NCBI GenBank assembly: GCA_963840855.1 | Contig: CAWJBB010000035.1 | Location: 1-49,546, forward strand | Direction of reading: 5' to 3' | Length of the DNA stretch: 49,546 bases | Source: an uncultured delta proteobacterium | GTDB lineage: Bacteria > Desulfobacterota > Binatia > UBA9968 | Shown: piece by piece, positions 22,576 to 43,173 of the stretch | Numbering within the stretch: position 1 is the first letter of the stretch | How the letters are laid out: each line of letters starts with the position of its first letter | Translations under genes and position numbers: made by a program | Notes under the pieces: model-generated | Databases searched by the model: none | What the model saw: only the letters and a program-made list of their open reading frames with translations | What the model was told of the DNA's origin: nothing

Positions 22576-22605
22576 AATTGAGTTGATGGAGAATTCAGTA
22601 CAATC
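22576..22605 (+). repeat. Putative recombination site (GGAGAA spacer)
   Basis: AATTGAGTTGAT-GGAGAA-TTCAGTACAATC. Confidence 0.75.
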
Positions 22606-23259
22606 CTGGCATCGCCGCTTGGTTTTCTGCCATCACTTGATCACTTTATCCGCTCTATACAGCATAGATTGCGGAATGGTCAGACCGATCTGCTTGGCCG
22701 TCTTGAGATTGATCACCAGCTCGAACTTCGTTGGCTGCTCCACCGGCAGATCGGCGGGCTTGGCGCCCTTGAGGATTCTGTCCACGTAGGTGGCGACGCG
22801 CCGGTCGCTGTCCGTGAGGTCCGCCCGGTAGGACATGAGGCCACCAGCCTCTACATGTTCTCTGCTGGAGTACACCGATGGTAGCCGGCTCTTTAACGCA
22901 AAGCCCACGACCCGTTTTCGGTTAGGACGCATTAGCCCGCCCGCGGTCAACGGGTAGAGTCCATCCGGGCGCTCCTTGTTTAGCGCAGCAAAGACCTTAT
23001 CGAAGTCGTCCACCGCTCGTATCTCCCAAGGTTGAATAGTCAACTTTAGCGCACGCGCGTCGGCTGGGAGAAGCTCTTTCACCTCGTGTAAACTGGGCGG
23101 ACTGGCCGGATCATAGAGAACCGCGACACGGGAAAGTTTGGGAACCGCTTCTTTGAGCAGCTCCAGCCGCTTCCCGCCCAGTTCTCTGTTAAGGGTTGTA
23201 AGGCCGGTGACGTTGCCGCCGGGACGAGCAAGGCTTTCAACATGGCCTTATATTAGGTC

Positions 23260-23460
23260 TGTTGCAGATTATCATATTGGAGATCATGTTTATGTGACAC
23301 TGATTTCAAGAGCTTGCTGGAATGAGGACCATCGGGGCCTAATCCCTCTCACGAGGATCAAGGGCAGACTGTCCCGTCCAGTAAGAGAACGGATCTGAGG
23401 TTCAATAGAAAGTTGTCCCTTTGTTGAGGACTTATATAAGGCGAACTTTCCGTTCATAGC
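23260..23460 (+). ncRNA. Putative IS110 bridge RNA (boundaries approximate)
   Basis: Guide-like segments match target (AGGGCAG vs CTGCCCT) and donor (ATATAAG vs CTTATAT; ATAGAAAGT vs ATAGAATGT), each pair flanking a hairpin. Confidence 0.7.
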
Positions 23461-23499
23461 TATTGGAATTGGAAGAACACAACCAAGGAGGAAGAGAGA

Positions 23500-24726
23500 G
23501 TGAAACGATACTATGTGGGAGTGGATTGGGCTGATGAATTTCACCAGGTATGGGTCAGCGATGCCGAGGGCAAGAAAGTAGCCGAGATGAAGGTTGAGCA
23601 GAGTCCCAAGGGCATGGGCGAGTTTGGCCGTTGGTTCCATGAACGTCAGGCAGAACAGATAGAGCTTTGGGCGGCCATCGAGAAGCCCCAGGGGCGGATT
23701 GTGGATTTTCTGTTGGACCACAGGGTAGTGGTCTATCCGGTTAATCCCAAGGCCCTGGACCGGGTCAGGGACCGGTTTCGCATGAGCCAATCCAAGAGCG
23801 ACTCCTTTGATGCTCATGTGTTGGCGGACTTTGTCAGGACCGATCATGCTCATTTGCGAGCTCTTGAGCCTAACTCCGCTCCGGCCCAAGAGTTTAAGAT
23901 GCTCACCCGGGATCACCACCGATTGGGGCGCCATAAGACTCGGCTCATCAATCAGATCGAGGCAACGCTCAAAGAGTATTACCCTCGCCCCCTGGAGGTT
24001 TTCTCTGATCTGGAATCGAAGATTGCGTTGGATTTTCTCACCCAGTATCCGACTCCACGGGCACTGTCTGATCTTACCCGTAGAAAATGGAACCGCTTTG
24101 CCAAGCGCGAGCACCATCTCAGTGAGGCGCGCTGTAAAGAGCTGTGGGAGAAGCTGAACCAGCCGCAGTTGGGAATTCCAGAACACGTGATCAGAGCCAA
24201 GGCGCAATTGCTTTTGGTGCTCGTCGCTCAGCTTAAGGCCTTGGCTCAGGCGGTGGAGAGCTACAGCGAGGAGATCCAACGTTTTTTCGCCTCTATGCCG
24301 GCGGCTAAGCTTGCGCAGACACTGCCGGGAGGAAAAAGTGGGACCATCGTACCGATGCTTTGGGCCGAGCTGGGCGATGTCAAGAGCCGATGGAAATCCT
24401 TTAGGCACCTTCAAGCCGAAGCGGGAGGGGTCCCGGTAACCCAATCCAGCGGCAAGAGCCATGTCGTACTGTTTCGTTTTGCCTGTAACAAGCTGATGCG
24501 ATACGCCTCGTACTGGTTGTCGTTTAACTCGCTCAATCGCTGTGAGTGGGCGAACAAGTACTATCGCGACCAACGGGCGAAAGGACATCATCATCCCCAA
24601 GCGCTTAGGGCTTTGGCAGCGAAGTGGTTGAAAATTATTTTCATCATGTGGAGAGACGATAAGCCGTACGATGAGAACTATCACTTGGCGAACATCGCCC
24701 GTCAGACGATGCGCCAGGCGGCATGA
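23500..24726 (+). CDS. IS110 DEDD recombinase/transposase
   Basis: YVGVDWA, AIEKP, KSDSFDA, PVTQSSGK. Confidence 0.95.
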   Translation: MKRYYVGVDWADEFHQVWVSDAEGKKVAEMKVEQSPKGMGEFGRWFHERQAEQIELWAAIEKPQGRIVDFLLDHRVVVYPVNPKALDRVRDRFRMSQSKSDSFDAHVLADFVRTDHAHLRALEPNSAPAQEFKMLTRDHHRLGRHKTRLINQIEATLKEYYPRPLEVFSDLESKIALDFLTQYPTPRALSDLTRRKWNRFAKREHHLSEARCKELWEKLNQPQLGIPEHVIRAKAQLLLVLVAQLKALAQAVESYSEEIQRFFASMPAAKLAQTLPGGKSGTIVPMLWAELGDVKSRWKSFRHLQAEAGGVPVTQSSGKSHVVLFRFACNKLMRYASYWLSFNSLNRCEWANKYYRDQRAKGHHHPQALRALAAKWLKIIFIMWRDDKPYDENYHLANIARQTMRQAA

Positions 24727-25255
24727 AAAAAAATAAACAGGGGACTTGACAAGTCTCATAGAATGTCTGCCCTAACAGGATCGGACCCAAGGCCCATCAT
24801 AACGATGGGAATCGTCTTGGTTGCATTCTTGGCCGCCTGGATCGTCACGTCCCCTGACGCTACCACGATGACATCAACCTTCAGACGCACAAGCTCCGCC
24901 GCAAGCCCAGGCTCCCGCTCGGGCCTCCCCTCCGCATATCGGTACTCAACGCCGATGTTCTGTCCTTCTATGTAGCCAAGCTTGCGCAGAGCCAGCCGAA
25001 TTCCCTCGGCGCGGGCGGAGTCAGTAGCTGCATCGGTGTTCGATAGATACCCTATCCGTGGGACCTTCTTCGCCTGCTGCGCCTCTGCCCTCGCCCCGAC
25101 CAACGTGAGCGCGAGGACGATTGCAAAAAGCCCCGCCCATTTTCGATTTTGGATTTTAGATTGTCGGAAAAAGACTCCAACCATCGCGCCCAAGATCTTC
25201 TATTCATTCTCTTGCCCTCAATCGAAAATCGGCAATCGAAAATCCAAAATTGGAT

Positions 25256-25332
25256 CACTTGATCACCCTGTCCGCTCGCGCCAGCACATTCGGCGGGATC
25301 GTCAGGCCGATCTGCTTGGCGGTTTTCAGATT
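25256..25332 (-). pseudogene. 3' fragment of another ABC_sub_bind gene
   Basis: NLKTAKQIGLTIPPNVLARADRVIK*. Confidence 0.8.
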
Positions 25333-25378
25333 AGCGTGCGGCGCGATCTGGAACACTTCGCGCGCCACCGACCACTAC

Positions 25379-25497
25379 GCCGCCCAAGCCAGCCGAAGCA
25401 ACATTGGGATTTTCATCAACCAGAAAGACGATTGACAACTCGCCGGGCTGGCGATAAAGCTCCGACCAGAAAAAAAGGTTGTTTAAATTTCCTATAC
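25379..25497 (+). mobile_element. ISCR/IS91 oriIS end, copy 1
   Basis: Ends GGTTGTTTAAATTTCCTATAC; repeats 28918..29033. Confidence 0.75.
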
Positions 25498-25711
25498 GTG
25501 GCCGCCGCTGGGAGTCAGGCTAGAGGGGCGAACGGGAAATCTCCCCTCGTCGTGACTTGCACCCGACCAGTTCGCGGTTGGTAGTGAGGCTGCACGATAG
25601 GCAACATGAACGGCCTCCGGAGGTGGTCGCCCCGTTCTTCGCCCCCGTCAACCCGACATAATCTCCCAGACTCGGACGCGGGCCGCCCAGGAGCCCGATG
25701 CCACAGCAGCC

Positions 25712-25800
25712 GCTGGTTCCAAGAAGGAGCGCTCGGGCCACGCCTCGCCGGCGCGGCGGTGGTGCTGGCCGGGGTGATCTGCGTGGCGCTCGCGCGCTGA
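25712..25800 (+). pseudogene. C-terminal fragment of an EamA/DMT-like transporter
   Basis: EGALGPRLAGAAVVLAGVICVALAR*. Confidence 0.5.
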
Positions 25801-25828
25801 GTGGCGGCGCGGCGGTCGGTCGAAGGCG

Positions 25829-25957
25829 TCAGTCGTTGATCTTCTCCACGTTGCCGTTGAAGAAGCCGCTCCTGGAGATGACGAGCGAGTCGGTCGTGAT
25901 GTTCCCGTTCGCGCGGCCCGTCTCGGTGATCTCGACGTTGCCGGTGGCGACGACCAT
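25829..25957 (-). pseudogene. Bactofilin C-terminal fragment
   Basis: Manual translation VVATGNVEITETGRANGNITTDSLVISRSGFFNGNVEKIND*. Confidence 0.65.
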
Positions 25958-26174
25958 AGAGCGTAGCCATCATCAACGGGATCTCCAGGGGCGGGGCGGT
26001 CGGGGGTTGACCCAGGGGGGTCTCGTCAAATGTTCCGAGATATGTGGTCATGTTGGACGGCATTTGGACCATTTTTAGAGACGCGAATACGTCCAGTGTC
26101 CAGGGCATACACGATGGCAGCACGTGTCTGAGCAATGCGTGAGTCACCTCTGTTGACCGTCAGGAAGGGTAAGT

Positions 26175-27974
26175 ATGGGCAATCGGTATCAGCAAAAGCC
26201 AGACGCAGACAACCGTCGGAAACGCCAGCCAGAGGTTTCCAAGCCCACGATGATGCGCGTGGTGCAGAACCTACCGCCGCCTTCGCGTTTAACACCTTCC
26301 GCCACGCTGCGGTTGCAGCGCACGATTGGCAATCAGGCGGTGCAGCGGTTGCTGCCTCAACTCACGCTCACTGCTAGGGTGCGCGGGGTGGTGCAGACCA
26401 AGCTGACCGTCCCTAACAGGGCTACCGGACTGCACGTGGCGCGAAGCGCGCCGACGGGGGTCATCCAGCGTTATGCAGCACGCGAACACGTCAGGTTCGG
26501 CGAAGTCAAGTCGATGATCACGCCGCAAGAAAAGAAGCACACCGTCAAGCCGGATTCGCCAATCTACCACCCGGTGGAGACGGGCGAGTCGGCTTCTAAG
26601 ATTGCGACAAAATATGGGATATCGCAGGACTTCCTGATCGCCCGCAACGCCGCGCGCTATCAAGTCGTCGATACGCCGGATGGCCCCAAGCCTGTGGGCT
26701 TTACTAAGGGCGACGTGCTGGTGCTGCCCGGCAAAACGGTCGCCGACGTCGCCTCCGAGACCGGCGTCTCGGAGGCGAGCATCCTCGCCAGCAAAGCGAA
26801 CACAGTCGAGACCTGGACCGTGCCGATCACACTGAAGGAATTTAAGGGCTTCGACCGCGACCAGACGGTCATCGTATCCACGGAGATGGAGGTCACGCAC
26901 GGCGCGTGGGCTTCTCAGGCAACGGGCCAAGAACCCATCAAGATTCAAGGCATCGAATTCAACTACGGCCAAGTGATCGCGTTGGGCGGCGATCTCTATG
27001 GGGACCCTGAGCATATGTTCAAGGCCGATAAGAGGGAATTGGAGGCCTTGAAGGCTCTGCTCGTCAAAGAGGCTAAGGATCCCAAATCGGTCACCGACGA
27101 CGACTGGGACCTCGCCACCGGCGGCCGCTACCTCAAGTTGGCTGAAGTCAACACCTCACATTATGGCCCGCATGACCGGGCGCTCACGCCGGTCATGAGC
27201 AAATCCGACGTCAATCACAAAAGCGAGTGGGAAAAATACCACCGCCAGGCGCTGGTAGCGGCACAAAACGGAGATAAGGACAAGGCCCTGGGCACCAACG
27301 CCTTTGCCGACCACTTCCTGACAGACGCTTTTGCGGCCGGACACCTGTTCAACAAGGAAGACGTGATGGCACGCTTTGAGAAAAAGTTCGACGCGAAAGC
27401 GCAGGAGACGTTCTTCCATGACGTCGCTTACGCCGCCTGGTCCAAAGTAGGGGATAAGCTGGACAAGTACGAGACGTACGATACGACCGCGGCCAAACAC
27501 TGGAATATCAGCTTTCCGGAGTACTTCCAACAACTGCTGCAAGGGATTTACGCCGACAAGGACGGCAAGGGCACAGTGCTCAATATGGTCGTGCTCATGA
27601 TCCACGACGATCTGAACAAACAGGGCGTCGAGGTCGAGAACCAGAAAGGCGACAAGTGGCCTCTGTCGGGTGACGGCAAATTGAACGACCGCAGCCTGGC
27701 CATCGGTAGGCAGGCGGTCGCCCAGTCGCAAGTGAACGTGCTCAACAGCGTGGGCAAGACGAGCACGCTCGATTTCCCGGCGCTGTTCAAGAGGGTCTGG
27801 GACTTTACGCCGCGCCCCACCACGAGCGGGGGGAAGTTGATCGACCAGTTGATCAGCCGGACTACGAACCCTGCCAACCCTACGACCGTCCGCGCCGCCG
27901 TCGATATCATTGTCGCGAAGATAGATATCATTCTCAAAAAGTTGGTCGAGCGCAAGAAACTGAAGAAAGCGTAG
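26175..27974 (+). CDS. eCIS-cargo-like protein with LysM region and putative Zn-phospholipase C-like C-terminus
   Basis: LQRTIGNQAVQRLL, VQTKLTV, VIQR; HPVETGESASKIATKYGIS; ADHFLTDAFAAGH. Confidence 0.65.
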   Translation: MGNRYQQKPDADNRRKRQPEVSKPTMMRVVQNLPPPSRLTPSATLRLQRTIGNQAVQRLLPQLTLTARVRGVVQTKLTVPNRATGLHVARSAPTGVIQRYAAREHVRFGEVKSMITPQEKKHTVKPDSPIYHPVETGESASKIATKYGISQDFLIARNAARYQVVDTPDGPKPVGFTKGDVLVLPGKTVADVASETGVSEASILASKANTVETWTVPITLKEFKGFDRDQTVIVSTEMEVTHGAWASQATGQEPIKIQGIEFNYGQVIALGGDLYGDPEHMFKADKRELEALKALLVKEAKDPKSVTDDDWDLATGGRYLKLAEVNTSHYGPHDRALTPVMSKSDVNHKSEWEKYHRQALVAAQNGDKDKALGTNAFADHFLTDAFAAGHLFNKEDVMARFEKKFDAKAQETFFHDVAYAAWSKVGDKLDKYETYDTTAAKHWNISFPEYFQQLLQGIYADKDGKGTVLNMVVLMIHDDLNKQGVEVENQKGDKWPLSGDGKLNDRSLAIGRQAVAQSQVNVLNSVGKTSTLDFPALFKRVWDFTPRPTTSGGKLIDQLISRTTNPANPTTVRAAVDIIVAKIDIILKKLVERKKLKKA

Positions 27975-28224
27975 AGTCGCACGGTATCACCGCTGCTCGA
28001 GCTGCCACGGCCGCCAAACCGTTTATAAAGTCGCACACGATCACGTACTTCGCCAAAGCTCTTAACTTCGCACTTCAGCTCAACGGCGCTTTAACGCGCG
28101 CGAATGGAGCCACGTCAACGGCAGTTGCTCTCAACCAGCTTGGTCAAGTGTCCCTCAGTGTTGACGACGTGGACGCTGAGCTTGCAAAGCGTGGCGAGCG
28201 CAGACAGGCCATCCGCCCCGGAGC

Positions 28225-28815: not shown

Positions 28816-28917
28816 GGAGCCGAAACCGGTTGCCAACGCCAGCCGACGCTGCCGCTCGCTCTGAGTTCGAGCGAGCGGCGCAATAAAAAACAAATCGCGC
28901 CTCTCCGACCGCTGCGC

Positions 28918-29033
28918 CGCCCAAGCCATCCGAAGCAACACCGGGATTTTCACTAAACGCACGTGCGCTTGACCGCTCGCGGGTTCGGCGATATAGCTCC
29001 GGGCAGAAAAAGGTTGTTTAAAATTTCCTATAC
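28918..29033 (+). mobile_element. ISCR oriIS end, copy 2, with outward promoter-like motif
   Basis: Follows the transposase; TTGACC-17-TATAGC; ends TTTCCTATAC. Confidence 0.8.
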
Positions 29034-29397: not shown

Positions 29398-29399
29398 GC

Positions 29400-30041: not shown

Positions 30042-30042
30042 C

Positions 30043-32001: not shown

Positions 32002-32231
32002 TGAGCACGTTCCGGCCGTATCAAGCTACGTGCCCTGCCTGCCGCCACGAATGGCAAGTCGAGCTCGCGCGTGGCCTGCACATTACGCGGCTGCCGGATA
32101 TTCGCGAGCGGCTGCTGCGAGGGACGTTTCAGGTATTCGCCTGTCCCGCGTGCAATGCGTCCGAGACTGACCAAAGGGCGTCGCATGGCAAGCCTACAAA
32201 TCACGGAGCCTACAGGGTGAGATTGAACTGA
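32001..32231 (+). pseudogene. CpXC-like Zn-binding protein, truncated
   Basis: TCPACRH...RERLLRGTFQVFACPACN, then the pattern breaks. Confidence 0.6.
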
Positions 32232-32233
32232 AC
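32221..32233 (+). repeat. Left part of a recombination site interrupted by IS91
   Basis: GATTGAACTGAAC; continues at 34662. Confidence 0.8.
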
Positions 32234-32581: not shown

Positions 32582-33647
32582 TCACGAAGAATCCCATGGT
32601 GTGGGGACGGCCAGGCCAGCAAGGAAGACCAGAGTTCCTTTGTGGCAAAGAGGGCATCGGGTGATATCGATGCCGGTGAGTTGGAGCATCAGCTCCTGAA
32701 TTGATTTCGAGGGGAGCTTGGGCAGAGCGGGATTGAGGTCCAGGAGTTGACGGCACTTTGCGAGAAGGCTTTTGGATCGGTTGGCTAGAAAACCGAAGTG
32801 ACGCACGCGCACGAAACCTTTGGGGGTCACATGGAGCAAGAAGCGGCGGATGAATTCGTGGGCATCGAGGGTCATGGTCCTTTTTCGGTCGTGATCTTTT
32901 CGGTCCCGGTAACTGAAGATGACTTCTCCGTTATGGGCTGAGAAAATCCGATCATTGGAGAGCGCCACGCGGTGCGTATAGCGGCCGAGGTAGTCAAGGA
33001 CATGGACAGGGGATTCGAAAGGTTTCTTGGCGTAGACGATCCAGGATTTTTTTCTCAATGCTTTGATCAGGAGGTGAAAGGCTACGGCATGAGCCAGACA
33101 GGCGCTCTGACCGACAAATAGGAGCGTGTTTTGCGCGAAAGCCTTTTTGAGCAAGTCGAGAAACTTACCCTGGAAAACGATGCTCAGGGCTTTAACAGGG
33201 AAGAGAAAATCTTTCCGGGCTGGAGTCCAGCGCTTTTGATCGAACGACAGAGCTCCAGCGGGGACCAGACAATGGAGATGAAAATGATCCAACAGGGTCT
33301 GGTCCCAAGTATGGAGCACCGTGATGAAACCGATTTGTCCACCAAGACGAGTGTGGCCGAAATCAACGAGCGTTTCCCCAACGGCTTTGAAGAGATGACC
33401 TAAAAGAATCTTTTTGTTGGTCAGTATCAGACCATTGAGTTCGTGCGGCAAGGTGAATACCAGAGTCGCAGCGCTCGATGTGGCCGCCCAGGGCCGCCGT
33501 GCGGCAGCGCTCCACGGCCTCGATGACTTTGAGATGCGAAACCGGCAACGGCTGGTTGCGGCGATACGACTCGCCATAGGCACGAAAGATATCGGCCAGT
33601 TCAGCGCCGCTTCTTGCCGCTGCCGCCTGATCCGCGACAGCTCGCAT
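32582..33647 (-). pseudogene. IS91 transposase with deletion/frameshift near 33462
   Basis: CRTAALGGH N-terminus joined out of frame to VFTLPH, LHTW, HFHLH, YLGRYTHR; the family Zn-binding segment is missing. Confidence 0.88.
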
Positions 33648-33660
33648 GAAGCTCAGCCCA

Positions 33661-34503
33661 TCAGTGAGGGAGCTGGAGCCGGTCCAGGGGACTCACGGCA
33701 GAATCCACGTTCTGTGGCCGTAGCCTCAAGTACCGCTGGGTGGACAGAAGGGAGGTGTGCCCCATCAAAAACTGGATCGAGCGCAGATCCACACTCGCCT
33801 CCAGGAGATGCGTGGCAAAACAGGCACGAAGGCTGTGAATCCCATGGCCCTTCTTAAGCCCTGCTCTTCTCTTCGCCGAGCGGAAGATGTGCCAGGCTTC
33901 CCCTCGGCTTAACGGGCCGTTCTTGGCTCGGTTGGGGAAAAGCCAGATGGAAGGCCGGTAGCGTTTCCAGTACTGGCGTAACTCCACAAGAAGGTTCTGC
34001 GACAAGATGCCATAGCGGTCCTTGCCGCCTTTACCCCGTTTTACACGAAGAGTCATGCGCGCAGCATCGATGTCGGCGAGCTTGAGATTGACCAACTCGC
34101 CGACTCGGAGTCCTGCCGCATAGGCGGTCATCAGTAAAACACGCTGCTTGAGACCTCGGGCCGCACCGATCAAGCGCACGACTTCGTCCGGACTGAACAC
34201 CTCGGGCAGAGGTGAAGGCTTCTTTCTCGGAGGGATAAACAGCTTGTTCTCATCCCACCCCAAAGTTTCATTGTAGAAAAACCGTAACCCACAACAGTAC
34301 CCCGTCAGACTATTCGGCGACAGCTTCCGTTCCACCGTGAGGTGCACCAAAAAAGCTCGGATGTCCTCCTTGCTGAGCTGATCCGGTGATTTGTGGTGAT
34401 ACCTGGCCAGTCGGCTTACCGCGTAGACGTAAGACTCCTGTGTTGCTGGAGAGAAGTTCCGCAGCTTCATCTCCTCGATCATTCGGTCACGTAAAACTCC
34501 CAT
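33661..34503 (-). CDS. Tyrosine recombinase (integrase)
   Basis: YAAGLRVGE, GKGGKDR, HSLR, MGH, TQRY. Confidence 0.93.
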   Translation of the reverse strand: MGVLRDRMIEEMKLRNFSPATQESYVYAVSRLARYHHKSPDQLSKEDIRAFLVHLTVERKLSPNSLTGYCCGLRFFYNETLGWDENKLFIPPRKKPSPLPEVFSPDEVVRLIGAARGLKQRVLLMTAYAAGLRVGELVNLKLADIDAARMTLRVKRGKGGKDRYGILSQNLLVELRQYWKRYRPSIWLFPNRAKNGPLSRGEAWHIFRSAKRRAGLKKGHGIHSLRACFATHLLEASVDLRSIQFLMGHTSLLSTQRYLRLRPQNVDSAVSPLDRLQLPH

Positions 34504-34661
34504 AATTGCCTCCTTGAATTAATTTGATCCACGGAGGCTACCACCGCGCACACGCAAAGAGTCAAAGGAAAAGATTGATGAAAAGTGACCGCGGGCGGAC
34601 TACTGAAAGTACATCGATGGCACGGACCTCTTCCCCCCACCGCGAAGCGGTTTAGTCCAAC

Positions 34662-34714
34662 GACGCAACGGACAAATCTCATAGGATTTGTTAGATGGAG
34701 AAATCAGTTCAATC
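34662..34714 (+). repeat. Compound recombination site, right part
   Basis: (C)GACGC-AACGGACAAATC-tcatag-GATTTGTTAGAT-GGAGAA-ATCAGTTCAATC. Confidence 0.78.
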
Positions 34715-34808
34715 CTAGCATCGCGCTTTTTCTTCGATCAGAACGTGATAAATATAGTTGGCTAGAAGGGTGAGGTCAGCTTTTCCGAAGTCACGCGAGG
34801 TTTGGGCC

Positions 34809-35720
34809 ATGCTGCGAAACCACATCTTGCGTATCGACGATCCCGCCGCCGCGAAGCGTTGGCGCATGTTCTGGCTGTTCGTTTCGCTGATCGTGCCCAC
34901 GCCGCTCGTCTACATTCTGGCCTCTCAAATGGCACTCTTCCGCGGCCTGCCCGTGTTTGCTCCGGCGGATTGGGTTGTGGCACGCACCACCGAAGCGGAC
35001 GGCGATATGACGCTGTCGGGCCTCTTTTTTGTTGTGGGACTGTTCGCCATTACGCTCGCGCTGTATTTTGGCGCCGACCATTTAAAGCGGTTGTACGGGC
35101 AGCGCCACGACGATTTGCGCGCCGAAGCCCTCTTCGCGAGGATCTCCGGCGGCGCCGATGCGGATGAGCCCTTCGTCCTTTATCTGCGGCCTTTCGGCTC
35201 TACCGCCGCTTTCAAGGTTCGCGTGCGCTACGGCAAAGCGGTGCGTGTCTATGAGCTGGAAGAGGAGCTGTCGCGCGCGGCGCGGCCGTTCGGGCCGTTG
35301 ATCGCGCTTGGCGAGAGCCTTGAACATGTCGGAGCGGGCCGCATCAAGTCTACCGACGCCAACTGGCAGGAGGCCGTCGGTCGCCTGATGTGCAAGGCCT
35401 TGCTCATTGTCATCGTTCCCTCCTCGCGCCCTGGCACGCTCTGGGAGATCCAGCACCTGCTCGCAGAGAACTATATTGCGAAGACGGTATTTATCGACGC
35501 GCCGACCGCGAGCGCCACACCCTTCGCGCAGGAGGTGGAATGGGGCGACATCGGCCGGCTTCTGTCCAGCCGCGGGTACCAATGGCCCGCCGACGATCCG
35601 AAAGGGCGCCTCATCTTCTTCGGCGCATCGAAAAGCCCCCAGATCAGTGAGCCGCTGAATTTCCACGGATCGACCTTCTTGCGTGCTGCGGTCAAGCGCG
35701 TCATCGCGCTCGCTGCTTGA
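34809..35720 (+). CDS. Hypothetical membrane protein with C-terminal alpha/beta domain
   Basis: Two hydrophobic helices; PFVLYLRPF, GAGRI, WQ, PGTLWEI; start uncertain. Confidence 0.65.
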   Translation: MLRNHILRIDDPAAAKRWRMFWLFVSLIVPTPLVYILASQMALFRGLPVFAPADWVVARTTEADGDMTLSGLFFVVGLFAITLALYFGADHLKRLYGQRHDDLRAEALFARISGGADADEPFVLYLRPFGSTAAFKVRVRYGKAVRVYELEEELSRAARPFGPLIALGESLEHVGAGRIKSTDANWQEAVGRLMCKALLIVIVPSSRPGTLWEIQHLLAENYIAKTVFIDAPTASATPFAQEVEWGDIGRLLSSRGYQWPADDPKGRLIFFGASKSPQISEPLNFHGSTFLRAAVKRVIALAA

Positions 35721-35829
35721 GCGCGCGTTAATCAGTTCCTCGACATTGACAGTGGTTTTTCCGGCAATCTGCGCCCGATCGGGACCCGGCGAGCCATCGA
35801 CTTTAGCCTCTCCTGAAAAACCCACTTCC

Positions 35830-35880
35830 CGCTCTTGAGAATCTTATCGACGTGTGTAGCAACACGCGGGAAAAGGCAAC
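35830..35880 (-). pseudogene. Short remnant of an ABC_sub_bind gene
   Basis: LFPRVATHVDKILKSGK resembles RAATYVDKILKGAK. Confidence 0.55.
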
Positions 35881-36001
35881 TTGAAGCCGAGACCCACAGT
35901 TCTCGCCGAAGACGGCATCGGCGGAATTTTGAGCCCGGCATTAGGCACAGTTCACATCAGCACCCAAGTTTTGCTGAATCGGAAGCTTAAAGACGGTGCC
36001 G

Positions 36002-36057
36002 CGACGTGTCAGTTAGATGCGGCGTAGGATTGGTTCGTTGGAGAATTCAGTTCAATC
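36002..36057 (+). repeat. Compound recombination site lacking its first arm
   Basis: CGACGT-GTCAGTTAGATG-8 nt-GATTGGTTCGTT-GGAGAA-TTCAGTTCAATC. Confidence 0.75.
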
Positions 36058-36084: not shown

Positions 36085-37068
36085 TCACCTAATCACTTTA
36101 TCCGCCCGCGCCAGCACATTCGGCGGAATCGTGAGACCGATCTGCTTCGCTGCTTTCAGATTGATGATGAACTCGAACTTTATCGGTTGCTCGACGGGGA
36201 GGTCGGCTGGTTTAGTGCCTTTGAGTATCTTGTCTACGTAAGTGGCCGCGCGCCGGTCCAGGTTGAGGAGGCTCACGCCGTAGGACATAAGCCCACCGGC
36301 TTCGACGTACCGGGGTTCGTGGTATATCGCCGGGAGTCGGTTCTTTACCGCGAGGTCTGCAATCTGTGCCCTCTGAGCACCAAGGATGCCGCTCGCTAGT
36401 ACGAGGACTCCGTCCGCCCGCCCCTTGCTCACTGCTTGAAATGTATTCTCAATATTGTTGAAACCTAAAACGTCGAGATGTTGAAGCGTCACTCCGAACG
36501 CCTTCGCGGCGAGTTCCAGCTCTCTCATTTGTCCGCCGGCAAAGCTGGTTGAAACCCGGAGGACGGCCAAGCGAGAGAGTTTGGGGACGACCTCTTTCAG
36601 AACCTCCAATCGTTTACCGTTTAGCTCCGGGGCAAGAGCGGACAGTCCCGTGATGTTTCCACCAGGCCGCGCCAGGCTGGCGATGATACCGTCGCCAACG
36701 GGATCGGCATCGTTGGTCATGACAATGGGAATCGTATTGGTCGCTTCCTTGACGGCACGGGTTGCGGTTGAACCGCTCGTGACGATGACGTCAAATGTGA
36801 GACGCACCATTTCGGCCGCGAGTGCCGGAAGGCGCTCGAGTTTTCCGTCAGCGGATCGCCAATCAATAACGATGTTTTTACCCTCCACGTAGTGAAGGTC
36901 GCGCAGTCCCTGGCGGAATGCCTCGTGGCGGGCCGTGTTAGCGGAAAGGGAGACACCCCCTAGGTATCCAATCCGCGGGACTTTCTTCGGCTGCTGCGCG
37001 TCGGCTATGACTCCAATAGCAAGTAGAATCACTACGAACAGGATTGACGAGACACCAGCTTTTTTCAT
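36085..37068 (-). CDS. Orphan ABC substrate-binding protein (ABC_sub_bind type)
   Basis: AQQPKKVPRIGYL, SLARPGGNITG, ADLPVEQP; alternative start 37080. Confidence 0.92.
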   Translation of the reverse strand: MKKAGVSSILFVVILLAIGVIADAQQPKKVPRIGYLGGVSLSANTARHEAFRQGLRDLHYVEGKNIVIDWRSADGKLERLPALAAEMVRLTFDVIVTSGSTATRAVKEATNTIPIVMTNDADPVGDGIIASLARPGGNITGLSALAPELNGKRLEVLKEVVPKLSRLAVLRVSTSFAGGQMRELELAAKAFGVTLQHLDVLGFNNIENTFQAVSKGRADGVLVLASGILGAQRAQIADLAVKNRLPAIYHEPRYVEAGGLMSYGVSLLNLDRRAATYVDKILKGTKPADLPVEQPIKFEFIINLKAAKQIGLTIPPNVLARADKVIR

Positions 37069-37172
37069 TGCAGACACCATTTGCGCATTATGCGGAAGGT
37101 AGCAGAGAAAAGTGGCATTTACGACACAAGGCGAAAGGTATTAGTTGAGTGGGAAGGCCAGAATCAGCCTAA

Positions 37173-37238
37173 GATTGAACTGAACGACGCAACGGACAAA
37201 TCTCACGGTATCGATATGTGGGAGAATTCAATTAAATT
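37173..37238 (+). repeat. Complete compound recombination site
   Basis: GATTGAACTGAA-CGACGC-AACGGACAAATC-tcacgg-TATCGATATGTG-GGAGAA-TTCAATTAAATT. Confidence 0.78.
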
Positions 37239-37540
37239 ACACAATAACGTTGTGCTCGTAACGCGCGTGTTATGCCGCCCCGAGGGTTCATTCCAAAGAC
37301 TTATTCGCTCCTGGAGGCAAGTCCGGTCCAGAGCGAGCGAACGATGGCGCGAATGATCGATTCATCGAACTTGCCACCGTGCACGCCCAGCCGTTCGGGA
37401 TCCCTTTGCACTAAGACCCCCAAGACGGCAATTGAACGAAGTCCGGCGCTCGGCCCGAAAAAATCGTGATGAGGTTGCAAACCTATAAAGGCTGGAAGCG
37501 GTAGCAGACCAACGAGGCAGTCTGAGGCATCATTTGCATC

Positions 37541-37675
37541 CTATTCGGATACGGCTCTTTTCAAACCTCTCCCAAGGTTCTGTATATCTTCCCCAATGCC
37601 GTGAAGCGTTGCGCATCCTTCTAAGACGAAGACGACGAAGAGCAACGCCCAGAGAAGCAACATTTTCTTTTTCAT
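37541..37675 (-). CDS. Entericidin EcnA/B-family lipoprotein
   Basis: LEGC lipobox, ATLHGIGEDIQNLG; GGAGG RBS. Confidence 0.8.
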   Translation of the reverse strand: MKKKMLLLWALLFVVFVLEGCATLHGIGEDIQNLGRGLKRAVSE

Positions 37676-37759
37676 TTTTGCCTCCAAGGCCGAGCACGGT
37701 TTCTGTTCTCTTAATAGCCTAACATTGATGATCAAGCAGCCAGAACTTAAAAGCGAACT

Positions 37760-38191
37760 TTAACCGCCATGGATGAGCCCAATCACGTCTTCGATGATGT
37801 CGAGGATGCGCTCTGTGCGCCGGTCGATGAGAATGACATTGCGTTCGAGGATCACCCGCTCCCAATGTTCCGGCAAACGCGGCAGGCGTCTATCCAAATG
37901 AACCGGAAGCGGCTGCAACCGTTTTTGTAGGCCTGGCGGCAGCTTGCCATCTCTATCTAGCTTCTTTTGTAAACCCGGCGGCAGGTTCCCACCCCGTTTA
38001 GCCAACCCTGGTGGTAAGCCCTTCTGCTTAGCTTTTTTGCTCTTGTGGTAATATTCTTCGATGATCCGCCGTTCTTCCGGCAGAAAGCGCTCCGCCCGAT
38101 TCGTATCGAGCGCCGCGACCGGATCTCGATGGCAGAGCGACGCTGCCACGAAGAGAGAGAACATTAGAAAGGATCTTCTCTGTAGCTTCAT
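37760..38191 (-). CDS. Secreted protein with LPPGL repeats (RcnB-like)
   Basis: Signal peptide; three LPPGLxK repeats. Confidence 0.7.
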   Translation of the reverse strand: MKLQRRSFLMFSLFVAASLCHRDPVAALDTNRAERFLPEERRIIEEYYHKSKKAKQKGLPPGLAKRGGNLPPGLQKKLDRDGKLPPGLQKRLQPLPVHLDRRLPRLPEHWERVILERNVILIDRRTERILDIIEDVIGLIHGG

Positions 38192-38736
38192 AATCCGTTT
38201 CCTTCCGCCGATTCAGAACTGAATATTGCTAGTCTATTTGTTATGGCCGTTGCCATGCGCTGCGCCACTTCCGCCGCCTTGGGGAAACAACTCCCCTGGA
38301 TGTGCCGGCGGTACAGCCGCTGAAGAGCAGTACCGACGGGAGCAAACATACGGCCTGGAATAAAGTGCGATTGTTGTTCATATGCCGCCAAAGAGACGCA
38401 ATAAGCACACCAAAGTCTTTGCCAGCAATTTTGGTCGATTTTGGAAAGATCTCGGCAACTATCCGGTAAAAAAGGCTATTCTCACGCGACGAAAAACGTA
38501 ATCTTTACATATCGAATCGATTTACGTCACACCTCACCCGTGAGAATTGGCAAAATATAGTGGGATTTCGTCTTTCGGCTGCAAGGTTACTGTGGCTGGT
38601 AAGTGCCGCTGAAGCTTATTTGGAAGCTGGGGTAAGGCGTTGTATGCGGCCGGGATCGATCCCAATTTGTATTTTGTGCATCACAAGTGGCGGAAAGCGG
38701 CGTAATTCTCCCTTCAACGCTGCACGGAATTAGCAG

Positions 38737-38766
38737 CTTTTGGTAGATGGAGAAATCAGTTCAATC
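38737..38766 (+). repeat. Putative recombination site (GGAGAA spacer)
   Basis: CTTTTGGTAGAT-GGAGAA-ATCAGTTCAATC. Confidence 0.75.
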
Positions 38767-38794
38767 CTGTAATCGCCGCTTGGTTTTTCTGCCA

Positions 38795-39025
38795 TCACTT
38801 GATCAACTTGGTCGCCCGCGCGACCACCTCCGGTGGGATCGTCAGGCCGATCTGATTCGCTGTCTTGAGATTAATCACCAGCTCGAACTTCGTCGGTTGC
38901 TCCACCGGAAGATCAGCGGCCTTGGCTCCCTTCAGAATCCTGTCCACGTAGTATGCGACGCGCCGGTAGCTCTCCGCGGGGTCCGCCCCGTAGTACATGA
39001 GCCCACCGGCATCTGCAAATTTTTG
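38795..39025 (-). pseudogene. 3' fragment of an ABC_sub_bind gene
   Basis: FADAGGLMYYG...ADLPVEQPTKF...ATKLIK; 5' part absent. Confidence 0.85.
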
Positions 39026-39067
39026 ACGATAAGATGAGAGGATCTCCTGCGTTACTATTTCGTTCAT

Positions 39068-40063
39068 TTACTTCTTCTTTGAAGCAACCTTGATGGGAGC
39101 TGGAGTCGCCACAAACCCGTGGGTTTCCCCATTGATGTCGTACCGCCCGACGAATTGCCCGTCATTATTCATCCCGCCAAGATGATTTAGCCACGCACCC
39201 TCGGGCAGCTTGATGTCGTAAACTATACCATCATCATAGAAACCCAACTTGGAACTGGTCCCATCGTTGGGCTCCATTACTGCTAGGATCGCGCCGTCGT
39301 TATTCATATCAACAGCGTACCAGAATGGCCGTCCACCCTCTAAGTCCTGTAATAGTGCTAAAGGCACACTGACAACCCCGTTGTCATAAACAAAGAAGCC
39401 ACGCTCTAGATACTCGCCAAACTCATTGAAGATGATATGTTCACCCAATACCTGTCCGCGCCTGTTAACCGCAAAGCAGTTAACGTAGGTTGATGGTTCA
39501 GCTCCAGGAAACGGGTCAATCTGGCGGTAAGCGCCGCCTCGGGAATCCCATAAAAAACAATGCGTGCTGAAGTCCTGCGCCCAGAACTGTCCCACAACAT
39601 AACGCCCGTTTGGGCTTACTCCCTGAGCAAAAGTATAATAAGCGCCGGGGTAATCGAGCAGAGTTAATTGACCGTCGGGCCGCTTTATAAACCCCGACCA
39701 AGCATCATCGCCCGTTTTACAGAATCCTGCGACATCTCCCCAGTTGCTAATTCCCTGTCCCTCTGTGTGAATACTGCCTGGGCAAAAATGCGCTTTCGGT
39801 TTTAAGCCTCGCCTGTTGGTCGTGATAGCGCCCAAACCGCTAGGAAAGTTGGCACCGGCCAAGATTTCGCCGTGGTCATTTATGTCGATCATCTCTGACC
39901 CGGATACTTGCCCCGGTGCCACTATATTTAGTGTCTTGAACTGATAACCGATCTCCGCCGCCCCGGCGCTTGTCGCCAAGAATACCGCCGCACCCACCGC
40001 TAAAACTAATGCCGGCAGGAATAGCAACGGCATCATGCGAAATATTTTTCCTCGGTATTTCAA
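39068..40063 (-). CDS. Secreted repeat protein (HAF-repeat-like, likely beta-propeller)
   Basis: Repeats INDHGEI, ISNWGDV, VNRRGQV, MNNDGQFVG, THGFV; signal peptide. Confidence 0.7.
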   Translation of the reverse strand: MKYRGKIFRMMPLLFLPALVLAVGAAVFLATSAGAAEIGYQFKTLNIVAPGQVSGSEMIDINDHGEILAGANFPSGLGAITTNRRGLKPKAHFCPGSIHTEGQGISNWGDVAGFCKTGDDAWSGFIKRPDGQLTLLDYPGAYYTFAQGVSPNGRYVVGQFWAQDFSTHCFLWDSRGGAYRQIDPFPGAEPSTYVNCFAVNRRGQVLGEHIIFNEFGEYLERGFFVYDNGVVSVPLALLQDLEGGRPFWYAVDMNNDGAILAVMEPNDGTSSKLGFYDDGIVYDIKLPEGAWLNHLGGMNNDGQFVGRYDINGETHGFVATPAPIKVASKKK

Positions 40064-40531
40064 AGCTCGTTTCCCCTTTCAATGATTTCGTCGAGTCGGA
40101 GAAGACTCTCCAAATGGGGTTATACTGCGAACCGGATGCCGTGCGGATATGAACCGTGTTGGTATGGTGTGCTCCCAAAACCACCAACTCACCCTATCCA
40201 GGAAGGCCCTGAATCTGCGTTGCTAATTGAGACCGGGTGTTTTGGCCTGGGGCGATATCTGCGGGATTCTAGATGGAAAAATGCGGTAAATGGCCAAGTA
40301 TGTTAACAATAGAATTTAGCGCTCAAAGGCGCTTCGATGTACCAATATTCTATCCATGAGCCTCACGCGACAGCAAAAACCTTTCGGACAGCGTTCTCGA
40401 AGATTTGCGGAAGGCAAACGAATTGGGAGGAGAACGCTTAGCGGTCCGAACATTCTTTTAAACTTTAACCCTGAATGGTGGATGAGAAAGAGGTTGATGG
40501 TATACGGACAAAAGGCAAAAAACTTTGCCGA

Positions 40532-40561
40532 GATTGAGTTGAAGGAGAATTCAGTTCAATC
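40532..40561 (+). repeat. Most symmetric recombination site
   Basis: GATTGAGTTGAA-GGAGAA-TTCAGTTCAATC (10 of 12 arm positions complementary). Confidence 0.8.
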
Positions 40562-40588
40562 CTGGCATCGCTGCTTGGTTTTCTGCCA

Positions 40589-41560
40589 TCACTTGATCAG
40601 CCTATTCGCTCGGGCGAGTACCTCCGGCGGAATCGTTACCCCGATCTGCTTCGCCGTCTTGAGGTTTATCACAAACTCGAACTTCGTCGGCTGCTCCACA
40701 GGCAGATCGGCAGGCTTGGTTCCCTTCAGAATTCTGTCCACGTAATAGGCAACCCGTCTCAACGAGTCGACAAGATTCGGACCATAGGTCATAAGACCAC
40801 CTGCTTCCGCGAACTCCGTCCACCCGGAGATGCTGGGTATGCGCCGCCGAACTGAAAATTCTGCGATTTCCTTTCGGCGGGCCAGCGTCACCGCATCCGG
40901 AAAAACGATGAGCGCGTTGGCGCGTTCACGGACTATCGCGGCAAAAGCGTCCTCAAAATCGCCGGGAGCCTTTACTGTCAGGTACTGGAGCGGCAGGGCA
41001 AATGCCTGCGCAGCCACTTGCGTTTCTTTCAATTCCCGTTGTTCGCCGGCATGCCGCGGGTTGGCCAATGCTGCCAGCCGAGAGATCCCCGGAACGGCCT
41101 CCTTAAGCAACTCGACCCGTTTGCCCGCCAACTCGGCAGCAAAGAAAGTCACCCCGGTGACGTTGCCCCCGGGCCGCGCCAGGCTGGCGACGATGCCGGC
41201 ATCCACGGGATCACCGCTATAGCCCATAACGACTGGGATATCTTTGATGCTTTTGGCAGCGTAGGGTGTCGCCGGCCCTATTGATACAATGACATTCACC
41301 TTGAGATGAACCAGCTCAGCTGCAAGATCGGGAAAACGTTCTAACCTTCCCTCCGCATACCGCTTCTCCGTGATGATGTTTTGGCCCTCCACGTACCCCG
41401 CATCTCGGAGCGTCTGTTCAAGCGCATCGATTTGGGGAGCCGGGACATTTGCAAGAATGCCGATCCGGGGGATTTTCCCGGCTTGCTGCGCCTCGGCTAT
41501 CACGACAACAGTAAGCAGTGTCACTGCAATCAGGAATGATGACAGACTAGCTTTCTTCAT
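40589..41560 (-). CDS. Orphan ABC substrate-binding protein (ABC_sub_bind type)
   Basis: Same family motifs; GGAG RBS. Confidence 0.92.
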   Translation of the reverse strand: MKKASLSSFLIAVTLLTVVVIAEAQQAGKIPRIGILANVPAPQIDALEQTLRDAGYVEGQNIITEKRYAEGRLERFPDLAAELVHLKVNVIVSIGPATPYAAKSIKDIPVVMGYSGDPVDAGIVASLARPGGNVTGVTFFAAELAGKRVELLKEAVPGISRLAALANPRHAGEQRELKETQVAAQAFALPLQYLTVKAPGDFEDAFAAIVRERANALIVFPDAVTLARRKEIAEFSVRRRIPSISGWTEFAEAGGLMTYGPNLVDSLRRVAYYVDRILKGTKPADLPVEQPTKFEFVINLKTAKQIGVTIPPEVLARANRLIK

Positions 41561-41648
41561 TGCACACTCCGTTCCCGACGTTACTTTTCCATATGTTTGT
41601 TTACATTCGGACGAACTCATTCGCGCGTAACACCGAAAGAGCAGGTCG

Positions 41649-41882
41649 CTATTTGCCCACTGCCTTCAGTGCGGCCCTTGCTCGTTGCTCCGGCGTGGCC
41701 CAGTCGGCGGGAAGGTTCTTGGCGCGAGTGATCTTGGAGAGTTCATTCAAGTACCGCTCGGACCGGCCAAGCTGCTCCATGCGTTGGTCAATCACGTAAG
41801 CTTGAACAGGGTCGGTCGAATAGTTGGGGACTTTAGCGCGTCGCCATCGGCCCGCGCGATCCTGCTTCTTGCCTATAAGCAC
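41649..41882 (-). CDS. Small hypothetical protein, phage ABA-sandwich-like
   Basis: VPNYSTDP...ATPEQRARAALKAV; start uncertain. Confidence 0.45.
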   Translation of the reverse strand: MLIGKKQDRAGRWRRAKVPNYSTDPVQAYVIDQRMEQLGRSERYLNELSKITRAKNLPADWATPEQRARAALKAVGK

Positions 41883-42005
41883 GCCTTCATGCTTGTGGAT
41901 ATTCTTTCAGCCGAACACTTTCTGCGCCGTTGCGGGCGTCTAATGCAGGGCCAGACCGCGTTATATCTTCAACTTTCTGGGCCATACAGTTTTGAGAAAC
42001 AGGCG

Positions 42006-42035
42006 ACGTTTGGAACAACGAGTTTCAATTCAATC
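42006..42035 (+). repeat. Degenerate site (right arm conserved)
   Basis: TTCAATTCAATC at 42024-42035; spacer and left arm differ. Confidence 0.55.
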
Positions 42036-42052
42036 CTAGCATCGCCGCGTGG

Positions 42053-43036
42053 TCACTTGATCACCTTGTTCGCTCGGGCGAGCAACTCCGGCGGAATCGT
42101 TAGCCCGATCTGCTTCGCGGCTTTCAGATTGACGATGAATTCAAACTTCGTCGGCTGCTCCACCGGGAGATCGGCTGGCTTGGCGCCTTTGAGAATTTTG
42201 TCGACATAAGTGGCGGCGCGCCGGTCCAGGTTGAGGAGGCTCACGCCGTAGGACATAAGCCCACCGGCTTCGACGTACCGGGGTTCGTGGTATATCGCCG
42301 GGAGCCGGTTCTTTACCGCAAGGTCTGCAATCTGTGCCCTCTGAGCACCAATGATGCCGCTCGCTAGTACGAGGACTCCGTCCGCCCGCCCCTTGCTCAC
42401 TGCTTGAAATGTATTCTCAATATTTTTGAAATCTAAAACGTCGAGATATTGAAGCGTCACTCCGAACGCCTTCGCGGCGAGTTCCAGCTCTTTCCTTAGT
42501 CCACCAGCAGGGCTGGTTGAAACCCCCAGGACGGCCAAGCGAGAGAGTTTAGGGACGACCTCTTTCAGAACCTCCAATCGTTTACCGTTCAGCTCCGGGG
42601 CAACGGCGGACAGTCCCGTGATGTTTCCACCAGGCCGCGCCAGGCTGGCGATGATACCGTCGCCAACAGGATCGGGATCGTTGGTCATGACAATGGGAAT
42701 CGTATTGGTCGCTTCCTTGACGGCACGGGTTGCGGTTGAACCGCTCGTGACGATGACGTCAAATTTGAGACGCGCCATTTCGGCCGCAAGTGCCGGAAGG
42801 CGTTCGAGTTTTCCGTCAGCGGATCGCCAATCAATGACGATGTTTTTACCCTCCACGTAGTGAAGGTCGCGCAGTCCCTGGCGGAATGCCTCGTGGCGGG
42901 CCGTGTTGGCGGAAAGGGAGACACCCCCTAGGTATCCAATCCGCGAGACTTTCGTCGGCTGCTGCGCGTAGGCGATGACGGCAACAGCAAGTAGGATCAC
43001 TATGGACAGGATTGCCAAGACACCAGCATTTTTCAT
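42053..43036 (-). CDS. Orphan ABC substrate-binding protein, close paralog of 36085..37068
   Basis: Near-identical central region and upstream DNA. Confidence 0.92.
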   Translation of the reverse strand: MKNAGVLAILSIVILLAVAVIAYAQQPTKVSRIGYLGGVSLSANTARHEAFRQGLRDLHYVEGKNIVIDWRSADGKLERLPALAAEMARLKFDVIVTSGSTATRAVKEATNTIPIVMTNDPDPVGDGIIASLARPGGNITGLSAVAPELNGKRLEVLKEVVPKLSRLAVLGVSTSPAGGLRKELELAAKAFGVTLQYLDVLDFKNIENTFQAVSKGRADGVLVLASGIIGAQRAQIADLAVKNRLPAIYHEPRYVEAGGLMSYGVSLLNLDRRAATYVDKILKGAKPADLPVEQPTKFEFIVNLKAAKQIGLTIPPELLARANKVIK

Positions 43037-43143
43037 TGCAGACACCATTTGCGTATTACGCGGAGGGTAGCAGAAGAAAAGTGACATTTACGACAGAAGG
43101 CGAAAGGTATTCGTCGAGTGGAAAAACCAGATTTTTCGCCCGA

Positions 43144-43173
43144 GATTGAACTGAACGACGCATCAGTCAGATG
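43144..43173 (+). repeat. Putative recombination site (CGACGC spacer), last in the array
   Basis: GATTGAACTGAA-CGACGC-ATCAGTCAGATG. Confidence 0.78.

Follow-up and report, generated by a model that had tools for sequence, protein, structure and literature searches.

Repeated 30-bp sites between gene modules of a Binatia genome look like recombination sites of a previously undescribed Xer-like recombinase element

Conserved sites between the gene modules

The stretch analysed here (the window) is the 49,546-nt contig CAWJBB010000035.1 of an uncultured delta proteobacterium of the Binatia lineage UBA9968. It is contig C35 of a 7.1-Mb assembly of 93 contigs (GCA_963840855.1), which is 94% complete with 8% contamination. 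Part of it is divided by short conserved sites into modules, three with intact genes for substrate-binding proteins (SBPs) of the family PF04392, one with an SBP gene split by an insertion sequence (IS) of the IS110 family, and three without a Pfam match. The sites, of two kinds that we call A and B, look like the recombination sites of a previously undescribed element with a Xer-like recombinase. Literature searches by motif string and keyword, covering titles and abstract openings, retrieved no description of the sites or of the element, and two 12-mers used as text strings gave a single match, an unrelated primer. The sites found in the window are the following.

22576..22605, minus strand: short palindromic A-type site (arm 22594-22605, TTCTCC 22588-22593, second arm 22576-22587), at the 3' end of the split SBP gene
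32221..32232, minus strand: conserved arm with a variant centre (CGGATA on the plus strand), a B-type end adjoining an IS91-like element
34649..34714, minus strand: 66-bp unit, A half 34685-34714, B half 34649-34678 with a degenerate outer arm
36002..36057, minus strand: A half (36028-36057) and a B central region without its outer arm
37173..37238, minus strand: complete 66-bp unit, B half 37173-37202, loop, A half 37209-37238
38737..38766, minus strand: A half only
40532..40561, minus strand: short 30-bp site, arm, TTCTCC and inverted arm, 10 of 12 positions complementary
42006..42035, minus strand: degenerate A half, arm retained (one mismatch), centre and second arm lost
43144..43176, minus strand: B half only, at the upstream edge of the array in the window

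On the minus strand, from which the genes are read, an A half-site consists of the conserved arm GATTGAACTGAA, the centre TTCTCC and a variable 12-nt arm, and a B half-site of a variable 12-nt arm, the centre GCGTCG and the conserved arm TTCAGTTCAATC. With up to two mismatches, the window contains 11 copies of GATTGAACTGAA, 10 of them within 22594-43155; shuffled sequences gave 3.76 ± 1.96, and a single shuffle in 100 got as far as 11. When the conserved arm is scored together with its centre (arm plus TTCTCC for A, GCGTCG plus arm for B, at most three mismatches), the window holds six A 18-mers (at 22588, 34697, 36040, 37221, 38749, and 40544) and two B 18-mers (at 37173 and 43144).

A preliminary description of this DNA had reported 30-bp sites made of a 12-bp arm, a 6-bp spacer and an inverted 12-bp arm, and all 12 coordinates that it named carry the sequences it gave. 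Its statement that the sites are intergenic, lie at module boundaries and share one orientation also holds, all eight 18-mers being on the minus strand. The 12 + 6 + 12 geometry is indeed that of tyrosine recombinase core sites of the Xer/dif type (two inverted arms of ~11 bp around a centre of 6–8 bp), although the full palindrome is good only at 40532 and 22576; at most sites the second arm is degenerate, and it agrees with the inverted first arm at 6–10 of 12 positions. The degenerate site noted at 42006 keeps the arm but fails the 18-mer test. Both spacer sequences from which two classes of site had been proposed are real, yet they do not mark separate sites: they are the centres of the two halves of one 66-bp unit, in which A and B stand back to back around CTGTGA and which is found complete 24 times in the genome. 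In SBP modules the conserved arm points toward the gene on both sides (B ... gene ... A), the flanking sites being inversely oriented as in the pdif modules to which the arrangement had been likened.

Distribution in the genome and among relatives

Genome-wide we counted 70 A and 63 B half-sites, compared to about 4.8 of each expected under a uniform model. The conserved arm (at most one mismatch) is present in 134 copies, with TTCTCC following in 44 and CGACGC in 38. Altogether the sites form 93 junctions on 14 contigs (37 A only, 28 B only, and 28 complete), 65 of the 93 being half-sites, and their strand is uniform within each contig with one exception. The A 18-mer (at most two mismatches) was also found in 20 of 40 related genomes, belonging to two families, while a reversed-pattern control gave zero in every genome. 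The exact 18-mer is kept across both families and the sequence adjacent to it is not. One relative, L154, carries runs of B-type sites with two good arms between single genes, a recombinase gene among them. The unpublished genome G009 is among the relatives counted, both for the motif and for the integron integrase IntI (see below); leaving it out gives 19 of 39 genomes with the motif, 12 of 39 with IntI, and 11 with both.

A recombinase gene between A and B ends

The preliminary description saw no dedicated recombinase, which proved wrong at the level of the lineage: a 307-aa enzyme is encoded between A and B halves in a relative of the same genus, in other genera and in soil metagenomes, and a frameshifted copy lies on contig C93 of the present genome. 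In the same-genus relative, L096, two segments of ~1 kb (6807-7820 and 8967-9979) each consist of an A half, ~47 nt, the 307-aa open reading frame (ORF), 6–9 nt, and a B half. The products of both ORFs have the two domains of a tyrosine recombinase, PF00589 (4e-33 and 8e-33) and PF02899. With 199.2 bits for XerD (cut-off 329.6) and 198.4 for XerC (cut-off 335.15), the enzyme stays below the NCBIfam equivalog cut-offs; the integron-integrase model gives it 60 bits, and its best relative of solved structure is XerD (1a0p). The enzyme is neither the host XerD (358 bits) nor the product of a XerC-like gene next to hslV, which are encoded separately. Nor is the accessory tyrosine recombinase of the IS91-like element in the window the enzyme that we propose for these sites.

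Homologues at E ≤ 1e-50 were found in 4 of the 40 relatives (three genera, two families), and the six copies in these genomes have the A end in four cases and the B end in five. At 33 metagenome loci from soil and other sources, several of them interrupted by contig ends, there is an A end at most 140 nt upstream in 13 and a B end at most 90 nt downstream in 21; the six loci with no more than 57% identity have neither. A database search listed 120 clusters of the recombinase, mostly on contigs of 1–6 kb and labelled in their sources as XerC or XerD, one of them carrying the name Candidatus Binatia bacterium. The copy in our genome (C93:38565-37651) follows an A half and is read in two frames.

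The B end is directly followed by a conserved non-coding stretch of ~190–230 nt (L096 9962-10200; C69:67909-68149 and C27:165436-165665, both on the minus strand), absent from the window, with a promoter-like pair TTGACA-N17-GATATT, three copies of GGAGATAGGCCG, and stops in all six frames. It makes up most of the listed matches of a 2.6-kb query from L096, which matched 55 of 90 family genomes (G009, G015, and G046 included), some with several copies. The stretch is a candidate small RNA or leader; a search of L096 6500-10500 against Rfam at E ≤ 0.1 gave no match.

Breakpoints between shared segments

In support of the preliminary reading, modules that are almost identical turn up in different surroundings, and their breakpoints fall within or at the sites, here among 19 segment pairs of our own genome that link different arrays (at least 300 bp, at least 90% identity). 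In one example, C69:64111-66462 and C85:104930-102579 are 99.96% identical up to exactly the outer base of the conserved arm belonging to a B site; past that point C69 continues with a methyltransferase module and C85 with an SBP module. The segments C46:104631-107782 and C75:18693-21844 (99.3%) begin at the arm, and as 2 of its 12 positions differ between them, the arm belongs with the differing neighbour. A 647-bp module common to C46 and C50 (95.7%) starts with the B site, takes in the A arm and TTCTCC at its other end, and stops before the variable arm. These breakpoints would fit an exchange in or beside the 6-bp central regions, the exact crossover point being hidden because the repeat is common to both sides.

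A junction of the two central regions had no exact occurrence in the genome, and its 15 loose matches were all unrelated coding sequence. With the 2.6-kb query, which spans one recombinase element, none of the 90 family genomes had the left and right flanks adjacent. None of the public sequencing runs contained more than 0.27 of the sampled words of 34600-43300, and Logan contigs from four runs gave, on 23500-43400, short pieces of the conserved parts. Some of these contigs have joints (e.g., 34666 to 36037), but such joints are expected from the repeats of other organisms at 92% likeness and are therefore neutral with respect to excision.

Content of the modules

The genes between the sites of the window are listed below.

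22633..25193, minus strand: PF04392 SBP gene split by an IS110-family insertion (C-terminal piece 22633-23082, N-terminal piece 24756-25193)
23500..24726, plus strand: IS110-family transposase (DEDD_Tnp_IS110 and Transposase_20) interrupting the SBP gene
32582..34503, minus strand: genes of the IS91-like element (Y2 transposase 32582-33583, accessory tyrosine recombinase 33661-34503)
34715..36001, no strand assigned: module without Pfam match, ORFs 34758-35720 (plus) and 35082-35825 (minus)
36085..37080, minus strand: PF04392 SBP gene, 331 aa
37239..38736, minus strand: module with a 143-aa ORF (37760-38191), without Pfam match
38795..40063, minus strand: SBP 3'-end remnant (38795-39067), in frame behind a 331-aa ORF (39068-40063) without Pfam match
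40589..41620, minus strand: PF04392 SBP gene, 343 aa
42053..43087, minus strand: PF04392 SBP gene, 344 aa, DNA 92% identical to the module 36085-37191

The whole genome has 99 PF04392 matches, many in tandem. Of its 73 modules of at most 8 kb between junctions, 24 measure 1083–1203 bp, which is the size of an SBP module, and 57 have their longest ORF in the orientation of the sites. Scoring the longest ORF with a three-sequence hidden Markov model identified 21 of the 73 as SBP modules, an undercount, since the genome-wide search gives the 99 matches just mentioned. Of 20 non-SBP modules sampled, 16 have matches to Pfam families, and the cargo they represent is diverse, including O- and class-I methyltransferases, an NMT1-like binding protein, BenE, subtilase, PAP2, GFA, LMW phosphatase, alpha/beta hydrolase, YHS, LysM, MBL-fold and EEP-fold proteins, and two S74-domain proteins. 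Such mixed accessory content is typical for cassette arrays.

Integron context

The genome carries an IntI gene on C1 (442 bits, cut-off 265) and, on C21, part of another; both contigs are without any 66-bp unit. Among the 40 relatives 13 have IntI (E ≤ 1e-40); 12 have both the motif and IntI, 8 the motif only, 1 IntI only, and 19 neither, and because kin are not independent and many of the genomes are incomplete, this is an association and not a test. Canonical attC-like hairpins adjoin A halves both in our genome, where an A half may lie directly downstream of one (e.g., C27:176933), and in relatives, where 10 of the 27 A halves listed start 10–12 nt after the GTTA... core that closes the hairpin. 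In L096, cassettes follow the IntI gene (647-1735) on the same strand, and canonical hairpins lie at 2761-2820, ~8905-8966, 12018-12099, and 13990-14048; A halves directly follow two of them, and IntI is 5 kb from two A halves. The arrays had been called an integron analogue without attC sites, a description that calls for qualification, with IntI present, attC-like hairpins upstream of some A halves, and the motif co-occurring with IntI.

Our own hairpin heuristic gave nothing convincing in 20001-46000 of the window; over 61 A halves examined it placed a hairpin before 2 of the 22 that lack an SBP-type tail (control 0 of 300), a rate that is too low, since inspection by eye shows more hairpins. 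A profile of the 66-bp unit had no match at 80 IntI loci of other genomes.

Some further features of these loci can be mentioned. In L096 (647-14048) IntI is co-directional with the cassettes, the array lying past its 3' end and not divergent from its 5' end. At C1:42288-46880 (L001, L005, L007) IntI matches its model only to position 298 of 315 and abuts several other tyrosine recombinase genes, a cluster that may represent insertion of a recombinase-in-trio element at the IntI 3' end. GTTCAA repeats near related IntI genes were considered and proved to be a different feature. At IntI loci of other genomes (L011, L016, L019, L020, L027, and L052), small ORFs in the upstream 10 kb lie between a set of four GTTCAANNN repeats with a 9-bp period and, opposite, a set of four TTGAAC repeats in inverted orientation; some of the ORFs so bracketed come directly after canonical attC cores, and these repeats form a separate system in integron arrays.

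Proposed mechanism

The sites themselves, their numbers and orientation, their conservation across genera, the recombinase associated with them and the breakpoints that fall on them are direct observations. They suggest that the sites are the recombination sites of a dedicated Xer-like recombinase and bound exchangeable cassettes, an interpretation whose catalytic and mobile side is read from sequence and which we regard as evenly poised.

According to this model, A and B would be double-stranded core sites of the element-borne tyrosine recombinase, each with one conserved and one variable arm, and as their central regions differ, like should recombine only with like. A module would have the conserved arm of a B site at its head and that of an A site at its tail. 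Where two modules abut, A and B would come to lie 6 bp apart as the 66-bp unit, and elsewhere single sites with two good arms would stand alone; the segment from an A site to the next B site would thus be either 6 bp or the recombinase gene. Two A (or two B) sites in direct order may give an excised circle carrying one site, the reverse reaction being an insertion, and paired A × A and B × B events may swap a module with its orientation fixed. The expected outcome would be arrays of mostly orphan PF04392 SBP genes and accessory genes, within or beside integron arrays. Binding and cutting by the recombinase, the position and polarity of strand exchange, and the movement of modules as units are what we infer here. 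If the recombinase segment is an integrated element, its unlike flanking centres might be explained by a single strand exchange resolved by replication, as is known for the integron and for Xer-exploiting elements.

Several observations weigh against this proposal. As the centres of A and B differ, a simple attL/attR model with one shared overlap does not fit, and the unlike centres need an additional assumption, either single-strand-pair exchange or heterospecific sites. Next to the recombinase gene, the variable arms are not the same as in the 66-bp units. The enzyme was found in only 4 of 40 relatives, as against the motif in 20, and the sole copy in our genome is frameshifted and has lost its B end, so the arrays of this genome may be inactive or served in trans. 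Searches of our own genome, the family genomes and run contigs for circles, excision joints and empty sites found none. Homologous recombination between repeats of 18–66 bp would yield the same breakpoints. Finally, tandem SBP arrays also exist without A or B sites (C6:1216-14967 and C32:27196-37060), so that plain duplication can produce arrays.

Alternative explanations

The 66-bp units and half-sites might be non-autonomous or decayed copies, similar to MITEs (miniature inverted-repeat transposable elements) or REPINs, of an IS-like 1-kb element (a small tyrosine-recombinase mobile element with inverted ends), having entered preferred targets and later been duplicated along with the SBP genes without mobilising them. 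The autonomous-looking element and the 66-bp unit do share their 18-nt ends, recombinase-bearing contigs are mostly of 1–6 kb, as multi-copy repeats would be, SBP arrays without sites exist, and the flanks by the ends are alike among paralogous SBP modules, as they would be after duplication. We nevertheless consider this unlikely, given that the flanks are inverted (YAG|...|CTR or TGA|...|TCA) and not direct, with no target-site duplication, that the copies are not dispersed but sit in 14 co-oriented contig regions, that half-sites make up most junctions and some sites stand singly with two good arms, that the interior of the unit is unrelated to the ends of the recombinase element, and that different modules are joined at the same site beside a 99.96% identical neighbour. 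Alternatively, the sites could be passive, the conserved flanks of a tandemly amplified SBP family that homologous recombination reshuffles with no dedicated enzyme today. The many tandem PF04392 matches would agree with this, as would the broken recombinase copy and a conserved leader and tail sequence that in SBP modules reaches beyond the sites. Identical 18-mers, however, stand beside unrelated non-SBP modules and bracket the recombinase gene in other genera and in metagenomes, and the exact 18-mer is conserved in two families where its surroundings are not, all of which makes passive flanks a quite improbable explanation.

More specific is the possibility that the 66-bp unit is an unusual attC site, folding single-stranded and used by IntI, in which case the arrays would be ordinary CALIN, clusters of attC sites with no integrase close by. 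This would account for the IntI gene of the genome, for the co-occurrence of motif and IntI, for the integron-like cassette content, and for a 66-bp palindromic unit with AAC...GTT ends whose central 6 + 6 nt are unpaired, like the attC spacer (5 of 6 positions are never complementary in the 21 distinct units). Cury et al. (2016; PMC4889954) characterise attC sites by their R and L boxes, by central spacers that stay unpaired, by a terminal structure that varies and by the presence of one chimeric site in each cassette; the units match this list only in part. The pairing of AAC (R'') with GTT (R') is not conserved: pair 8/59 is Watson-Crick in 62% of the distinct units, and its four left and four right variants, by which the AAC or GTT triplet is lost in 8 of the 21, are never compensated. 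Pair 12/55 is also complementary in 62%, about what independent columns would give. Of the 12 positions of the inner arms 6.6 pair on average, and in 3 of the 21 units (loop CTACAA) these arms are unrelated. Instead of one complete site at each cassette 3' end, most junctions have half-sites, and canonical hairpins with ..CTAAC / GTTA.. cores are found in the same arrays, just upstream of A halves. Neither IntI gene of the genome is near a unit and none of the 80 IntI loci of other genomes holds one. The A and B sites are thus probably not integron attC sites, and we see very little chance for a role of IntI at the 66-bp unit. Even less probable, in our opinion, is a regulatory or structural role, with the palindrome as an operator, terminator or RNA hairpin for the expression of the neighbouring genes. 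The position of the sites is fixed, ~27 nt past SBP stop codons and ~110 nt ahead of the next start, and the arm contains a -35-like TTGAAC (by sequence reading only), but the hairpin is not followed by a run of T, arm complementarity is not kept, the ends bracket a recombinase gene and unrelated genes, and the window has no match in Rfam at gathering scores.

Comparison with known systems

Of the arrangements described so far, the pdif module of Acinetobacter comes closest, followed by the integron cassette. In pdif sites one arm is conserved and the other variable, as here. In the Acinetobacter plasmids, according to PMC9771954, genes lie between inversely oriented XerC/XerD sites by a mechanism that is still open; two short arms around a 6-bp spacer, inversely oriented sites flanking gene modules, modules in different contexts and an unproven mechanism are common to both systems. 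The present sites differ in being chromosomal, in an uncultured soil lineage, and in having 12-bp arms; in coming as two alternating kinds, mostly as back-to-back pairs at junctions, and not as one shared site; in the dedicated Xer-like paralogue encoded between them, where pdif relies on the host XerC/XerD only; and in a cargo of mainly orphan binding-protein genes instead of resistance genes.

With integrons and CALIN, as described in PMC4889954, the arrays have in common modules that are mostly single genes in the same orientation with diverse accessory functions and short imperfect palindromes in between, as well as the co-occurrence with IntI and the location of arrays away from the integrase gene. 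In contrast to integrons, arm complementarity is not kept here, AAC/GTT is variable and half-sites are frequent, the associated recombinase is not IntI, and canonical attC hairpins are separate features of the same arrays. What sets the system apart from both pdif modules and integrons is the combination of a chromosomal location in an uncultured soil lineage, 12-bp arms, two alternating kinds of site, paired sites at junctions, a dedicated enzyme, interleaving with attC and the SBP cargo.

Elements that exploit Xer are known to have hybrid sites, whose centres are unlike on either side of the element once it is integrated. Among simple mobile elements with a Xer-like tyrosine recombinase, PMC8138268 describes XerT of the Helicobacter TnPZ and IMEX, which resemble the 1-kb segment in that the element itself carries a two-domain Xer-related recombinase. 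Here, in contrast, the element is only ~1 kb long with 12-bp inverted ends, sits inside cassette arrays, and has many relatives of its ends in arrays, with or without genes. With MITE and REPIN-RAYT systems it shares a short palindromic family whose ends are those of a single-gene element, and inverted copies that bracket the enzyme gene, but the enzyme is a tyrosine recombinase and not a DDE or HUH (Y1) transposase, and the copies are clustered and co-oriented, with no target duplications seen. None of the 10 Y1_Tnp loci of the genome is near an arm copy, unlike in REPIN-RAYT.

A broader proposal, which we advance tentatively and hold to be rather doubtful, is that these arrays represent a second cassette platform, independent of IntI, in which a Xer-like recombinase and two lox-like sites that do not cross-react would swap modules between arrays and so maintain and reshuffle a large library of orphan SBP genes interleaved with integron cassettes, the orientation being fixed because the head and tail of a module carry different kinds of site. 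By analogy, such a platform would be a natural counterpart of recombinase-mediated cassette exchange. If our main interpretation holds, integrons would not be the sole chromosomal platforms for storing and reshuffling single-gene cassettes: in a widespread uncultured soil lineage, a compact Xer-derived recombinase with simple double-stranded sites would have a similar function inside integron arrays, placing two such systems at the same locus. The unproven idea of the pdif module would gain an independent chromosomal example with its own enzyme, and the mechanism could be examined with a single protein and substrates of 30 bp. It would also account for how about 100 copies of one binding-protein family were assembled. 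Two 30-bp sites that do not cross-react, served by one small recombinase, could be of use as a genetic tool.

Insertion-sequence remnants and simple repeats

The preliminary description held that the IS91-like element splits one site (32221 + 34661), which could not be established. The conserved arm followed by CGGATAGGTTT, as at that end, is also found at C65:13889, and the single Y2 transposase copy of the genome is not at C65; another reading of 34649-34714 is that of a complete unit whose outer arm is degenerate. In the window (32221-34660) the arm is followed by the IS91-like element, which has a terminal hairpin at 32239-32311.

The part of the window at 25.2–32.2 kb is a messy region of IS remnants, in which a separate repeat occurs two to three times, at 25333-25497, 28870-29033, and 31302-31328 (142 nt at 75% identity and a 27-nt motif, AAAAAAGGTTGTTTAAATTTCCTATAC). 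The SBP arrays on C6 and C32 have short spacers with other simple repeats, GGCGTGAGGCGCGAGG... and GATTTTGGATTG..., and the GATTTTGGATTG kind is also present in the window at 25139-25250.

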